DNA of 64,000 bases from Lophium mytilinum (GCA_010093605.1 MU004193.1:1185520-1249519); one strand, 5' to 3'. Counted from the stretch's first letter, positions 29,454 through 56,103 are shown. Notes: generated from the sequence alone by a model not told the origin. Translations and numbers: made by a program.

Positions 29454-29504
29454 TATTAGGAAAACCTAAAACTGCAAAAGTTAGGGCTATTAGTGCTCGG
29501 CAGC

Positions 29505-29580
29505 GAACAGCGTAAACTTCCGGTAAACCGCGTAAATTACGTAACGTCTGCGTAAACTACTAGCGTAGGTAATATTACTA
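29505..29580. repeat. Left subterminal short repeats (CGTAAA-like) of the Plavaka element
   Basis: cagcgtaaacttccggtaaaccgcgtaaattacgtaacgtctgcgtaaactactagcgtagg. Confidence 0.7.
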
Positions 29581-30880
29581 TATAGACTAGTAGTAGTTTA
29601 CCTATATACTACGCAGCCTAATAATACTTAATTATTATCTATTATTTTAAACTATTAATAATTTAGTTCTATAGTGTCTTTTACCTAATTAGCCTTAGTA
29701 GTGCTAGAGCTAATATATATATACCCTGTATATAATGCCGCCTACGTTCTACTATAAAATAATTCTATTTACCGCTCTTCCCTCTCTATAGTAGTATAAG
29801 GCGGGGGTGGAAGTAAGTAGAGATAGTAAGTACTTAGGCTAGGATGTCTAATCTTTATCCTATAAACAGTTAGTATAGTAAAGTTAGGGCTATAGCAGTT
29901 AAAAAGTAGATTTAATAGATATATAGAGGATAGATAGAAAAGATATAATCTATCTATTCTATAATTTAGCGCTAGGTCTGGCTTATAAATTATAATCGGG
30001 ATACTTAATATATTCTTAGGTAGACTCTTACTATATTACTATTAAGACCTATTATTTAAGAGTTAGGCCGCGGTGTATAACTATCTATAAATAATAAAAA
30101 GTATATAACTATTCTACTACTAATATAAGCTCTAGTAGTAGTCTCTTATATCTATATTATAGAATAGCCTCTAGTATTATAGCTATAACACTACTACCTC
30201 TATAGCCCCTTCTTTCTATTTACTTCTTCTATATCTCTTATTTCCCTCTATATTAGCACGCTTTACTCCTCCTGCCTATATTTTAGGTTGCCGCTCCTCT
30301 ATTTATAGTCTCTTCTATTATACTTCTAACCTTAGGAGTTAGAATACTATTATTTTATAACCTAGCCTATAGTATACTTATACGCTAGAAGGCAATAAGA
30401 ATATATACTCTCCGTCTAGCGGGGTAGTTATAGGACCTAAAATATACTTAAAGGAATAGGCTAGAGTCTCTTTTAGAATGTAAGAATATAGGGGGCACGC
30501 TATAATAATTATAGATAATTTTATATAATCCTAGATAATCTTACGCAGTACTATAAGAAGAGTTAGAGATATTAGAGTAGAAGTAGCTTTATTTTCCCTC
30601 TCTCTACTGCGTTATTATATAGTAGATAGTTATCTATTACTAGTATATATAAGGGCTAGGTTATCCCTATAATACTAGATTAAAGCGTATCTAGCGCTAG
30701 TAATAGAGTATATATTTTATCCGCCTGCTTATTTTCTAAGAAAAGTAGGGCTAGAGAAGTAGTAGTTAAAGTAGAGTTAAAAGCTAGTAGGGAATATAGA
30801 TATATAGTCGCGTATAGTAGTTAGAAAGATTAAGAGCTATATATATAAAAGATTATACTAGAACTAAGGCGCTATTATAT

Positions 30881-31020
30881 AGAGTAGAGTAGGAGAGATA
30901 GAGAAACTTAGTAGAAAAAAAATTCTATAGAGTAGAGCAGAAGGGATAGAGAAATCTAGTAGATAAAAAAGCTTATAGAGTAGAGTAGAAGGGATAGAAA
31001 AGCTTAGTAGGTAATATAAG
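30881..31020. repeat. 48-bp tandem repeat, ~3 copies, inside cargo region
   Basis: Units like agagtagagcagaagggatagagaaatctagtagataaaaaagcttat. Period is a multiple of 3. Confidence 0.75.
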
Positions 31021-52500: not shown

Positions 52501-55500
52501 CGGCTGCGCGTTATAATATTAATACCTCTATTAGGGCCTTTAACTTAGCTAGCTATCTATCTAATAATATAGAACGCAAAGTCTATAATCTCTTAACTAA
52601 CTACTATTTTAATAGCGTAGGAGATGCTATCTAGGAATAATAGTAGAAGGTAGCAGCGCGCGTGCAGCAATTAGTAGAAGTTAATATAAGTGCGTAAGTA
52701 TAAGCTCTAGTCTAAGGCAATATAATAGGAGAGATAATTGCGTAGATAGAAATATTTAATTATATAGAATAATAGGGCTTTATTAAGGGGGGGATAGAAA
52801 AGAGGTATATAACTAGCTAAAGACGCTAAGTTAATATATATAGACTGCATCTAGCTAGCTCTATTATATTCTATTATAATAAATACGCAACTTACTCCCC
52901 CTTTATTCCCTTCTCTCTACGCTACTTAATTATAATCTACTTTACTTCCCTTTATAGTTATTATTCTTATACTCTACCTTAAGAAATAGAATATTCTTTT
53001 ACTACACGCCCTCTATTTATTATTTAGTAAGGCTTAATATTACCTACTTAAATATAGTAAAAGGTAATATAGAACTATCTCTCTCTACCCTAAATAGAGA
53101 CTTACTATATAACTTAAACGTGCTATACTATATATTCTATCTATAGTACACGTTAATATATATATAGCTAACGCGTATAACTATAGATAGTAAAGAAGTA
53201 AAAATGCGCTACCTTAAAACTAATTAACACGGTAACGCGCCTAGCTCCCTTAACTCTAACGCCTGCTAACTAATAATAAATATATAGAACTTAATAAGTA
53301 AAAGAGAATATACTACTAGAATATTCTAAGACGGCGATGCTATATTATCTCGGCCGTCTAGCCGCACCTTATCTCTTGCTAGAAAGAGAAAACGCGGTAT
53401 AGAGGATAAGGATAGGCACACGCCTATTTTCTAATCTAGTAATACTAACTTCCGCGTATAAATAGACTTTAAGCGTAAGATTAGCTTATATATATATTAT
53501 AGCTACTCTACTAAGTAGTATATACTAATAAATACCTATTAGAGTGCCGCCGTAGTCTAAGATAAGATAGCGGCTAGAATAGAAGCCCGCAGGGCTATTA
53601 ACTAAATAACTAGGTTTAATATCTTTGCGTTAAGCAGTCTACTATCCTCCTCTTCTACTAGCCGCTTCTTAGGTATAGGTAGAGGCATACCCGTCTATAA
53701 CTGCATTAGCTCCCTTAGTATAAAATAACGCAGTAAAATAATTTAGATATAGGATGGTGTAGATAGGCATGCTAAAGTACTAACTATAAAGGTAAAATAT
53801 ATAGTAGTAGAAGAATAAATAAGATACTAGATACTTAGAAGTATAGTATTAGGTACTAATATAATTAGAAAATATAGTAACAACCTTATAGCCTAGACTA
53901 AGAGTATTAGGCTAGATATATTTTAGTAAGTGCTAATATAAATATAGGTAGACGTCTATAAAGACTAACTATTCTATACTTAAGCTAATATCCCTACTAC
54001 TCTAAACCCTTTTTACGCGTAGAAGGTATATTACTCTCTCCCTACTCCTATAACCTTATATAATGGCTAATTATAATATATAACCTAGATTTATAATACT
54101 TTTAGTTATTTCTATAATGCTATAATAAAGGTTACTTATAATATTATATAAGAATGCTATAGTCTTAGTTTTATAACTCTAGATATTACCAGCACCGCGT
54201 TAACACTAATAAAGAATTAGAACTATCTCTTTAGGGTAGATAAAGACTAAGCTAAGATTAGTTACTAACCTAGTATTAGATAGCATTCTAATAGATTATA
54301 GAGGCTACTAGTAATCTTTATAGCTAAGGCTATTTAGGTAGTAGTTATAGACCTACTCTTTATAGGACGGTCTATAAACGCCTTAGAGATATAAAGATAC
54401 TTAAAAGAGTTTTTTAACCCCCTCTTAGGTAATACTATTATATATATATATACTTGCCTCTACTATACTATTAGTAAATATACCTTAGGCTAGAAGCGCA
54501 TAAACCTAATTTATAGGGTTACTACTACTAGTATTAACTACCGCCCCCCTTATATAAGACTATGCTAACTATAAGCTAGGGTAGTAAATTATAATAAATA
54601 TCTTGCCTAATAGCGGGCACTTAGCTTACGCTATAAGCACTAACTATTATCCTACTAGTAAGAATTTATTATAAAACGGGTAGGTTAGTATATAAACTAT
54701 AAAGAAGATAATAATAAGAATATATATAATAACTCTAACCGCTATAATGCATTAGATTTAACTAAAGATATAATACTAGAATAATAATAGGCCTTTACTA
54801 CAAGGGTGGCAAGAATAGAAGTAAAGAAGCGGGATTAGTAGCGGAACCTTATTAACTAACGTAAGAAGATATATACGCTAATAAAGCGCATTAAGAGCGA
54901 AGCATAACTATTTAACTCTAGGTACTTATTCTTACCGCGTTTAATTCTATCTAGCCCCCCTCTTAGGGACACTTTATTAGATATTATAGATAGTATAGGT
55001 AATTATATAAGGTAGAGAGCTAAAGTATAATATACTAATTATATTAACTATAGAATAATAAGATTAATAATATAGAGCCTCTTACTAATAATAACTTATA
55101 CCGCTTAGCTCTAATTTATAGGGAGGCTAAGGAGAGTATTAAGATAAAGAACTGCTAGAAGTAGTGCCCTCTTAATCTCTTATTTATATAATTTAGGCAG
55201 CGGTTCTATATAAAGGAAGATAAATGCGGCTAGTATAAAAATAATACTATAATTATATTTAATAAGGACTAATATTAAAAGTTTATAGCTGCCTACGTTA
55301 AGGCATAGAATTCTAGAGAAGGAAGCCTGCGGCTAGTTATTAAGTTGCTTAAGAGTATTAGGGATAAGGAATAGTAGTATAGAATTAGTAAATAGGGTGT
55401 AAGTAGGCTCTATCTTATACTTAGTATTATCTTTCTATTTTATAATATATATACCGCAATTAGATGTATCCTAAATTACTATATAGTCTACTATCTAACG

Positions 55501-55949
55501 CGCAATGTATATATCGCGTGCTATTCCCTAGCCTAGATATCTAGCGCACGCGTTACTAGCTCTAATAGTCTACTAGAATATTAAAATTATTAAGGTTAGT
55601 AATAGTTACATAATTCTTAGAAATATATATAGGTATTACTATCTATATAACGCGTAAAGTCTATAATATATATAAAGTTACTATAGACTATAAAGCCCTA
55701 GTAGAGGTAGTAAGAAGAGATAACTAGATATACTAGTGCAACTTTAAATTTCCTACTATACGCGATAATTATGTATTTAGTATATAAGGCCCCATTTATA
55801 TTATTATCTATCTATCTATAACCTAGGCGGATTGGGCGGTTTTAAAAGGTTAGATAGAGGAGGTAGATAGCTATATTTATAAGGACTATAAAGTAGTTAT
55901 TAACTATAATAATTACCTATAATACTAGATTATCTATAATTAAGAATTA

Positions 55950-56080
55950 TCTACGCAGCCTGCGCGTAAATTTTATATAAGAAGTGGGTAAACTTTTATA
56001 GAGTGGCGCAAAGCCCGCGGAGCGGTAAAATGCGTAGTCTTCTAGAAGGTTACGTAAGTAACTAGTATTCTCTACGCGTT
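55950..56080. repeat. Right subterminal short repeats (CGTAAA/GGTAAA-like) of the Plavaka element
   Basis: gcgcgtaaa, gggtaaac, gcgcaaag, gcggtaaaa, gcgtag and tacgtaag clustered within ~130 bp of the right TIR. Confidence 0.6.
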
Positions 56081-56103
56081 TCTTAATTTAGAAATTCCTA
56101 ATA

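Follow-up and report, generated by a model that had tools for sequence, protein, structure and literature searches.

The stretch of DNA analysed here, referred to as the window, covers 64,000 nucleotides of Lophium mytilinum (GCA_010093605.1, MU004193.1:1185520-1249519) and contains an AT-rich block degraded by repeat-induced point mutation (RIP) at 28001-58750. The block sits between genes, roughly 360 bp upstream of a gene for a GH17 glucanase, and harbors the following features, with positions counted from the first nucleotide of the window.

28001-28052, plus strand: left terminal inverted repeat (TIR) of an outer element, O (40/40 over 28001-28040; 54 bp at 96%), not mutated by RIP
28053-29451: left arm of O, RIP-degraded
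29452-29453: TA, left copy of the 2-bp Plavaka target-site duplication (TSD)
29454-56103: probable Plavaka element, 26,650 bp (26.65 kb), RIP-degraded
29454-29470, plus strand: left Plavaka terminus TATTAGGAAAACCTAAA, RIP form of CATCAGGAAAACC
29510-29557, plus strand: left subterminal repeats GCGTAAAC, CGGTAAAC, GCGTAAAT, ACGTAACG and GCGTAAAC, where [CG]GTAAA is denser than anywhere else in the block
36984-38409, minus strand: relic of a Plavaka DDE transposase (PF18759), interrupted by numerous stops and, near 37930, by at least one frameshift
40401-41700: strongest purine/pyrimidine 3-base periodicity of the block (22.1)
45796-49500, plus strand: relic of a long reading frame, in which a Glu/Lys-rich repeat of 15-nt period (46410-46838) precedes a stretch containing a GKT motif
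49778-49982: candidate miniature element of Plavaka type, 205 bp, with ends TATTAGCAATATAA / TATTAGGAATATAA (13/14) and a 3-bp AAG duplication
55964-56059, plus strand: right subterminal repeats GCGTAAAT, GGGTAAAC, CGGTAAAA and ACGTAAGT, the second-densest [CG]GTAAA window
56087-56103, minus strand: right Plavaka terminus, reverse complement TATTAGGAATTTCTAAA; the element end ..CCTAATA is the RIP form of ..TGATG
56104-56105: TA, right copy of the 2-bp Plavaka TSD
56106-58696: right arm of O, RIP-degraded, containing the foldback
57270-58017: foldback of 748 bp in the right arm of O (182-nt arms, 85% complementary)
58697-58750, minus strand: right TIR of O; the element proper ends at 58748, given a TA TSD

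The RIP block and its outer inverted repeats

The RIP composite index (TpA/ApT minus (CpA+TpG)/(ApC+GpT)) is at least 1.0 in all 61 of the 500-bp bins from 28001 to 58500 and negative in the flanks. RIP being uniform, every part of the block was therefore repeated DNA when RIP acted. The original prediction gave ends at 29454 and 56103; the degraded block is wider than these Plavaka ends and stops at 28001 and 58750, at a perfect 40/40 inverted repeat, and on either side RIP itself ends about 100 bp inward of the outer repeats. In purine/pyrimidine recoding, which is unaffected by RIP transitions, this 40/40 repeat outranks every other dispersed inverted match in length, and only the foldback and homopurine runs are longer. 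The pair had been missed in the earlier reading of the locus. TA is the sole possible TSD at these outer ends, which delimits an element proper of 28003-58748 with perfect 38-bp TIRs starting CCGTATAG. Because the RIP block extends past the Plavaka element on both sides, as far as a perfect 40-bp inverted repeat flanked by TA, the Plavaka element appears to be nested in a second TIR element.

The Tc1/mariner-pogo group is a candidate class for O, as it is for a small element at 18.1-19.8 kb of the window with a Tc1-like look by eye; both share with this group the TA TSD and perfect TIRs of 27-38 bp. However, the remainder of O outside the Plavaka element amounts to about 4.1 kb including the 748-bp foldback, beyond the usual 1.8-3 kb, and no transposase of the DDE_1 or DDE_3 type was found by Pfam in either arm. 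More generally, Pfam retrieved no protein family in the arms (six frames of 28001-35200 and 52801-58750, E<=0.01), and two transposase motifs, sought there with a RIP-tolerant regular expression, gave nothing convincing. PHISTA and ESTA, further TA-duplicating lineages described in the available text of PMC12730594, are candidates as well. IS3EU, with termini TAYGG..CCRTA and a 6-bp TSD (PMC12730594, available text), was rejected, given outer termini TACCG..CGGTA and no 6-bp TSD. The outer TIR had 0 matches in metagenome scans.

O as a whole (30.75 kb, 28003-58748) may have been the multiplied unit, acting through its 38-bp repeats and TA with Plavaka as a passenger, so that the "giant element" would be a composite. 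Its arms are indeed as heavily degraded as the interior, RIP stops where expected for a duplicated unit, and the outer repeats are perfect. Yet a transposase is undetected in either arm, and an outer element and a Plavaka element that were separately multicopy would leave an identical RIP pattern, and we hold this composite to be distinctly unlikely. A giant element of the Starship kind, or another one driven by a tyrosine recombinase, with its captain gene erased by RIP, would agree with the size class, with inverted repeats at both ends and with TTAC, the Starship target motif, at the left junction. Against it, the right junction is without TTAC, the sole recognisable mobility gene is a DDE transposase, and the 7 kb next to each end yielded neither DUF3435 nor another recombinase family (six frames, 28001-35200 and 52801-58750, E<=0.01, at low sensitivity to RIP relics); we thus consider such an origin very improbable.

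The Plavaka transposase and its termini

Six-frame translations in which stops were read through as X gave a Pfam match to PF18759 (Plavaka) on the minus strand at about 38409-37936 (profile positions 35-205 of 325, E 2.2e-9, 37.4 bits for a cutoff of 26.3) and a second one past a frameshift at about 37925-37497 (positions 193-318, E 4.9e-4), so that both stretches combined span positions 35-318 of 325. Similarly, three Pisolithus Plavaka proteins map by tblastn to 38217-38044 and 37682-36984, and the database relatives of the relic are Plavaka proteins only, the best being unnamed Pisolithus proteins. Family and strand were hence rightly predicted, but the span of about 35.8-39.1 kb shrinks to 36984-38409, since the Pfam and tblastn matches stop there. 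The Plavaka type of the element is supported. Plavaka transposases are marked by C(2)C and H(3-4)H motifs, and PlavakaB, which carries a Plavaka-type DDE transposase such as the one detected here, belongs to the CMCT clade, i.e., CACTA/EnSpm-Mirage-Chapaev-Transib and relatives (Kojima, 2025, PMC12730594, available text).

A narrower assignment to PlavakaB is putative and draws on termini taken from the available text and supplement of PMC12730594. There, PlavakaB elements have termini 5'-CATCA..TGATG-3' (one published pair being CATCAGSAAAAY..TGATG) and 2- or 3-bp TSDs, and 18 complete consensus sequences start with CATCAG[C/G/T]AAA.., as in the 5' ends of RuGr (CATCAGGAAAACCGG), 3_ScCi (CATCAGGAAAATG) and N1_FiHe (CATCAGGAAAAATG). 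The element at hand starts with TATTAGGAAAAC.. and ends with ..TTCCTAATA. RIP at two CpA sites would turn CATCAGGAAAACC into the observed TATTAGGAAAACC, and RIP on ..TGATG would give the observed ..TAATA, so that TATTA..TAATA is the exact CpA>TpA, TpG>TpA product of the published ends, which are recovered under RIP conversion only. Past these first five bases, the left terminus also agrees with the next 7-8 PlavakaB consensus bases, and it exactly matches a RIP-tolerant 12-mer consensus, YATYAGBAAAAY; the right terminus is two positions off the 12-mer. Among the pre-RIP termini proposed originally (TGT..ACA, TAT..ATA or CA-type), the CA-type fits best, specifically CATCA..TGATG, and the other two fit less well.

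Part of the evidence for these ends is no better than chance. The predicted 14/17 inverted repeat between TATTAGGAAAACCTAAA at 29454 and TATTAGGAATTTCTAAA (reverse complement, ending at 56103) is present, but 169 window pairs reach at least 14/17 within 2 kb x 2 kb around both ends. Similarly, 11/101 properly oriented pairs of RIP-tolerant 9-mer termini reach 16/24 identity, compared to 6/53 wrongly oriented control pairs, and a wrongly oriented control pair also has a TSD match. Taken singly, neither the inverted repeat nor the 9-mer terminus thus rises above chance in this TA-rich DNA. TA is found on both flanks, as predicted, with a duplication of 2 bp only (flanks differ at lengths of 3-11 bp); it agrees with the 2- or 3-bp TSDs of PlavakaB and is weak evidence alone, TA being the commonest dinucleotide here. 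Candidate termini within the block number 14 on the plus strand and 11 on the minus strand. Of the right-end candidates at 48735, 49982 and 56103, only the last has a flank (TA) in common with 29454, and the other two were rejected for lack of such a TSD. The pair 36347/38455 has identical 12-mers but no TSD, would cut the transposase relic, and was likewise rejected. The 205-bp miniature element ending at 49982 may be of chance origin.

The subterminal sequences add evidence of another kind. The clusters of CGTAAA-like repeats announced for each end turn out to be the top two motif windows of the block, with 5 [CG]GTAAA at the left end and 3 at the right end, the next best window in the 30.7-kb block having 2. 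Counted on both strands, 29454-29620 contains 8 copies of [CG]GTAA and 55940-56103 contains 5, for a background of 0.67 per 165 bp (Poisson P of 5.5e-7 and 6.4e-4, respectively); since the left end served to define the motif, independent testing is limited to the enrichment at the right end. The motifs have the same strand orientation at both ends and are not mirrored. Both end windows are also among the three most CpG-rich of the block (11 for a mean of 3.0), and an 11-mer, CTACGCAGCCT, is found at 55951 and 29609, about 150 nt inside each end. The ends at 29454 and 56103 are believable because RIP-form PlavakaB termini, the densest GTAAA/CpG clusters and a common 11-mer coincide there.

These data bear on a plainer reading, in which the block is an ordinary nest of unrelated RIP-degraded fragments, Plavaka being one small piece and the 29454/56103 match a coincidence of TA-rich DNA. 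AT-isochores made of nested transposons are common in RIP-active ascomycetes, and such a mosaic would accommodate the inverted repeat and 9-mer at chance frequency as well as the many candidate termini. Nevertheless, it explains poorly a left end that equals 12-13 nt of a published consensus after RIP conversion, the concentration of the two best motif clusters and the common 11-mer at the very ends, and a TSD restricted to 56103 among pairings with 29454. Moreover, purine/pyrimidine comparison of the block revealed neither direct repeats of LTR type nor any additional long inverted repeats, and Pfam found no families besides Plavaka, hence no other transposon protein, in 28001-58750 (six frames, X at stops, E<=0.01). 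The absence of reverse transcriptase or integrase matches is weak evidence, because Pfam is insensitive to RIP relics, having missed the small element at 18.1-19.8 kb, and this works in favor of the mosaic. All in all, we regard this mosaic as unlikely.

The sequence outside the transposase

About 23 kb of the Plavaka element lies outside the transposase relic. It had been described as RIP-degraded and gene-like; RIP is present throughout, and the gene-like character is weakly borne out, by periodicity and by no protein family. Purine/pyrimidine 3-base periodicity, a signal that RIP transitions cannot erase, is present in the block, and its peak suggests that 40401-41700 may be a coding relic. 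No Pfam match was obtained for 40301-41881 in all six frames at E<=10, and no homologues were found for its minus-strand frame. A scan of stop density for coding relics was non-discriminating, as the Plavaka relic itself was unflagged.

The GKT-motif stretch of the 45796-49500 frame resembles SNF2, a proposed cargo gene, by eye only. Its plus-strand frame (46999-49899) had no match in Pfam at E<=10, SNF2_N and Helicase_C included, gave antibody noise only with phmmer against PDB (E<=10), retrieved nothing in a word-indexed search and had 0 matches with phmmer against 1.84 billion representative proteins, which leaves the SNF2 cargo unsupported. A RIP-tolerant 28-nt subterminal pattern had 1 metagenome match (L001), located in what we take to be a bacterial EAL-type coding sequence; with only 26 nt in common, on a GC-rich contig and within this apparent coding sequence, it was rejected as unrelated.

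The extra sequence could consist of family-specific genes, captured genes or old nested fragments. The prediction that the whole block was multicopy and moved as one unit with a multi-gene cargo holds for its first part, uniform RIP indicating repeated DNA everywhere; movement as one unit and a multi-gene cargo are unsupported, as no cargo gene can be named and the SNF2 lead found no backing. In its strongest form, either the 26.65-kb PlavakaB or the 30.75-kb composite would have multiplied as one unit carrying several large genes besides the transposase, including the frame of about 1,200 codons at 45.8-49.5 kb, with its Glu/Lys-rich repeat and P-loop-like motif, and the coding relic at 40.4-41.7 kb. 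This is a tentative possibility, on the doubtful side.

Known elements, a proposed history and its meaning

The element resembles PlavakaB by its PF18759 transposase, its CATCAG[C/G]AAAA..TGATG ends after un-RIPing, its 2-bp TSD, its short imperfect TIRs, its large size and the amount of sequence beyond the transposase. In the available supplement of PMC12730594, PlavakaB consensus lengths range from about 6 to 24.4 kb, with PlavakaB-1_GyCo at 24,396 bp and others at about 19-22 kb, and some of the 19-24 kb sequences have a captured TET/JBP gene (PMC12730594). The present element is about 2 kb longer than the largest of the published consensus sequences compared and, by contrast with them, is fully degraded by RIP and has no detectable TET/JBP gene. 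Its host also appears to be a RIP-active, GC-rich ascomycete, whereas the families described in the available text are mostly from Agaricomycotina, plus Tuber (PMC12730594). A reading as a new class of giant element is not supported, consensus sequences of 19-24 kb being already published; since PlavakaB families in that source already reach 24.4 kb, we see here a large but ordinary member.

CACTA/En-Spm elements have a related DDE transposase lineage, short TIRs and subterminal repeat clusters, which in these elements bind element proteins; they can exceed 10-20 kb and capture genes. Here, however, CACTA termini are replaced by TATTA (from CATCA), and the duplication measures 2 bp instead of 3 bp, the 3-bp flanks being CTA and TAT. 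With Starships of Pezizomycotina, the block shares a size of tens of kilobases and a gene-rich ascomycete region, but it differs by its DDE mobility gene and its TIR/TSD ends of the cut-and-paste type, and no DUF3435 captain was found in the intervals searched. Among the papers searched, none mentions both Plavaka and Starship.

From the sequence of the block, we consider it probable that two dead DNA transposons lie here, a PlavakaB inside an outer TIR element, both wrecked by RIP. The outer element would have entered the intergenic site upstream of the GH17 glucanase gene, and the PlavakaB element would then have inserted into it, duplicating TA. By analogy with its family, an active PlavakaB would have moved by cut-and-paste: its minus-strand DDE transposase would bind to the CATCAG.. 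termini and, probably, to the subterminal repeats of GTAAA type near each end, cut the element out and insert it elsewhere, with duplication of 2-3 bp. Both elements would have been multicopy in one or more sexual cycles, and RIP would have turned CpA into TpA across all 30.6 kb, killing every gene.

In its present state, the locus is a dead relic. From its position, the insertion could alter the regulation of the GH17 glucanase gene. Reading CpA>TpA in reverse makes it possible to identify published Plavaka termini in spite of RIP, and purine/pyrimidine recoding offers a RIP-proof route to old repeats and coding periodicity. To our knowledge, discussion of cargo carriers in RIP-active ascomycetes is usually confined to Starships. 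If the block did move as one unit, the range of large cut-and-paste elements with gene cargo would include these fungi, and no larger Plavaka would have been seen so far; driven by a DDE transposase, it would carry cargo in a niche otherwise held by Starships.

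A RIP-degraded block bounded by an outer inverted repeat

Base composition delimits in the window an AT-rich block (GC ~0.30) with sharp edges, set between gene-bearing flanks with a GC of 0.48-0.60. In every 2-kb bin of 28001-58000, TpA/ApT amounts to 1.64-1.96 (flanks 0.5-0.9) and (CpA+TpG)/(ApC+GpT) to 0.17-0.35 (flanks 1.1-1.4). The composite index of repeat-induced point mutation (RIP), i.e., the first ratio minus the second, is at least 1.0 in 61/61 500-bp bins from 28001 to 58500 and negative in the bins directly outside. Since all bins of both sizes carry these indices, the block is RIP-degraded throughout, without any spared island, and every part of it must thus have been repeated DNA at the time RIP acted. 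The original prediction delimited a giant element at 29454-56103; the inverted repeat at its ends is present, but the degraded block is wider.

Both composition breaks coincide exactly with a perfect 40/40 inverted repeat (28001-28040 vs. 58711-58750), which is free of RIP mutation and reaches 54 bp at 96% identity. When the window is recoded in purines and pyrimidines, a code unaffected by the transitions of RIP, no other dispersed inverted match is as long as this repeat; only a local foldback and homopurine runs exceed it. TA is the sole flank match among lengths of 2-11 bp, which places an outer element with terminal inverted repeats (TIRs) of 38 bp, here named O, at 28003-58748. O was absent from the original prediction. 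As RIP stops just inside these repeats and not at the Plavaka ends, the arms of O were themselves repeated. The right arm harbors a 748-bp foldback (57270-58017; 182-nt arms 85% complementary, third partial copy at 57500-57629), possibly a nested miniature element, for which no clear target-site duplication (TSD) was seen.

Host genes and a second, small dead transposon were noted in the flanks. The latter, of 1.7 kb, is bounded by a perfect 30-bp inverted repeat (18093-19810), from which a 27-bp TIR (CAAGGGGCGCGG..) and a TA duplication define the element at 18096-19807. With a GC of 0.34-0.39, it is RIP-mutated in part and retains near 18466, on the minus strand, a DDE stretch of Tc1/mariner-like appearance, "SPDLNPIE", recognized by eye and with a RIP-tolerant regular expression.

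Genes to the right of the block
59109-60059: GH17 glycosyl hydrolase (PF00332, E 2.1e-19), starting ~360 bp from the right end of O
63080-64000: FAD-dependent oxidoreductase (PF01266), farther out

Plavaka ends and subterminal repeats

The inverted repeat predicted at 29454 and 56103 was recovered (TATTAGGAAAACCTAAA vs. reverse complement TATTAGGAATTTCTAAA, 14/17) with TA flanking both ends. By itself it means little, as 169 window pairs in the 2 kb x 2 kb surrounding the ends give an inverted match of at least 14/17. Similarly, with the RIP-tolerant 9-mer YATYAGBAA (14 plus-strand and 11 minus-strand sites), 16/24 identity is reached by 11/101 properly oriented pairs vs. 6/53 wrong-orientation controls.

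The published description of the family changes the picture for these ends, otherwise weak by their inverted repeat. Two groups are described, PlavakaA, whose termini are TGT..ACA and whose TSD is of 2 bp, and PlavakaB, whose termini are CATCA..TGATG and whose TSD is of 2 or 3 bp (Kojima, 2025, PMC12730594). According to the first 400 bases of the consensus sequences in its supplement, 18 complete PlavakaB families start with CATCAG[C/G/T]AAA.., with 5' ends such as CATCAGGAAAACCGG (RuGr), CATCAGGAAAATG (3_ScCi), CATCAGGAAAAATG (N1_FiHe), CATCAGCAAAACA (LaDe), and CATCAGCAAAATG (TuBo). RIP conversion (C to T at CpA) of CATCAGGAAAACC yields exactly the observed left end TATTAGGAAAACC, and RIP on the other strand of ..TGATG yields the observed right end ..TAATA. 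In the block, the 12-mer YATYAGBAAAAY is matched exactly only once, at 29454; the right end differs from it at two positions and still falls within the spread of PlavakaB ends in that supplement (SLL: CATCAGGAAATT). Among three candidate right ends (48735, 49982, and 56103), only 56103 shares its flank with 29454. An exact un-RIPped PlavakaB terminal 12-mer, CATCAGCAAAAT, also lies at 6542-6553 in the GC-rich flank, probably by coincidence since dinucleotide-preserving shuffles give 1.6 chance matches to the 10-mer.

The repeat clusters claimed at each end were also retrieved. Over both strands of the whole block, the 150-bp windows richest in [CG]GTAAA are 29511-29660 (5) and 55965-56114 (3), all others having at most 2, and both rank among the three most CpG-rich (11 vs. 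a mean of 3.0). The looser [CG]GTAA occurs in 8 (left) and 5 (right) copies within 165 bp of the ends for a background of 0.67 (Poisson P 5.5e-7 and 6.4e-4); since the left end served to define the motif, the right-end figure is the independent one. The 11-mer CTACGCAGCCT is present ~150 nt inside each end. Oddly, the motifs of the two ends share one plus-strand direction and are not mirrored. Two metagenome scans retrieved nothing related. A 28-nt RIP-tolerant pattern of the left repeats matched one metagenome contig (L001, 2861-2888) within GC-rich coding sequence, presumably of a bacterial EAL-type protein, and this match was discarded as unrelated and due to chance.

Transposase relic and interior of the element

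On protein similarity, the relic of a Plavaka transposase is real, but of the 3.3 kb of motifs originally claimed only ~1.4 kb are supported by Pfam and tblastn. Its relatives in an index of 5.8 billion proteins are only three Pisolithus proteins, all with PF18759.

Transposase relic and probable coding relic within the block
38409-37936, minus strand: PF18759 (Plavaka), E 2.2e-9, above the curated cutoff, read with X at stops
37925-37497, minus strand: second PF18759 stretch, past a frameshift
38217-38044 and 37682-36984: tblastn matches of the three Pisolithus proteins
46410-46838: degenerate repeat with a 15-nt period, coding for a Glu/Lys-rich (EKEKK-like) stretch in frame with a long reading-frame relic that reaches ~49.5 kb

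No family besides Plavaka was found by Pfam (E<=0.01) in all six frames of 28001-58750, a weak negative since the same method found no family on the small TA-flanked transposon at 18.1-19.8 kb, despite its Tc1-like stretch. Neither LTR-like direct repeats nor further long inverted repeats were detected inside the block by the purine/pyrimidine comparison, which speaks against intact nested LTR or long-TIR elements. As a signature of coding, 3-base periodicity of purines and pyrimidines marks the block and the genic flanks equally often (12.7% vs. 13.3% of 600-bp windows), with maxima at 40401-41700 and 45801-48100, the latter partly due to the 15-nt Glu/Lys-rich tandem repeat. The presence of coding relics is thus probable, but no gene could be named by Pfam or phmmer. 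The frame 40301-41881 (minus strand) has no relatives. A long plus-strand frame at ~45.8-49.5 kb, with a GKT motif and a SNF2-like appearance by eye, is presumably what suggested a SNF2 cargo; this idea found no support by Pfam at E<=10, phmmer against PDB, a word-indexed search, or full phmmer over 1.84 billion representatives (0 matches).

The element also contains short tandem repeats at 30874-31017 and 32357-32518 (48 bp x3, 77-85% alike; 81 bp x2, 86%). A 205-bp pair (49778-49982) with Plavaka-like ends (TATTAGCAATATAA/TATTAGGAATATAA, 13/14) and identical 3-bp AAG flanks may be a nested non-autonomous miniature Plavaka derivative, a tentative reading, since the flanks of one control pair match over 3 bp as well.

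Relation to known elements

The original observation is confirmed in part, and its interpretation partly supported. The element is not a classical CACTA, from which it differs in both termini and TSD length; no hallmark of Starships was found here, and our literature search retrieved no paper pairing "Plavaka" with "Starship." Plavaka has been reported in Ascomycota for truffles. PlavakaB consensus lengths in the supplement range from ~6 to 24.4 kb, including PlavakaB-1_GyCo (24,396 bp), which captured a TET/JBP gene, and others of ~19-22 kb (PMC12730594). A member of 26.65 kb is at the top of this known size range and not a new kind. The block is best explained by insertion of a PlavakaB element into the older TIR element O, itself located ~360 bp upstream of the GH17 gene. 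Entry of Plavaka into O would have duplicated TA, by a cut-and-paste movement as expected from the family. From the one copy compared, O and Plavaka may have multiplied either separately or as a 30.75-kb composite.
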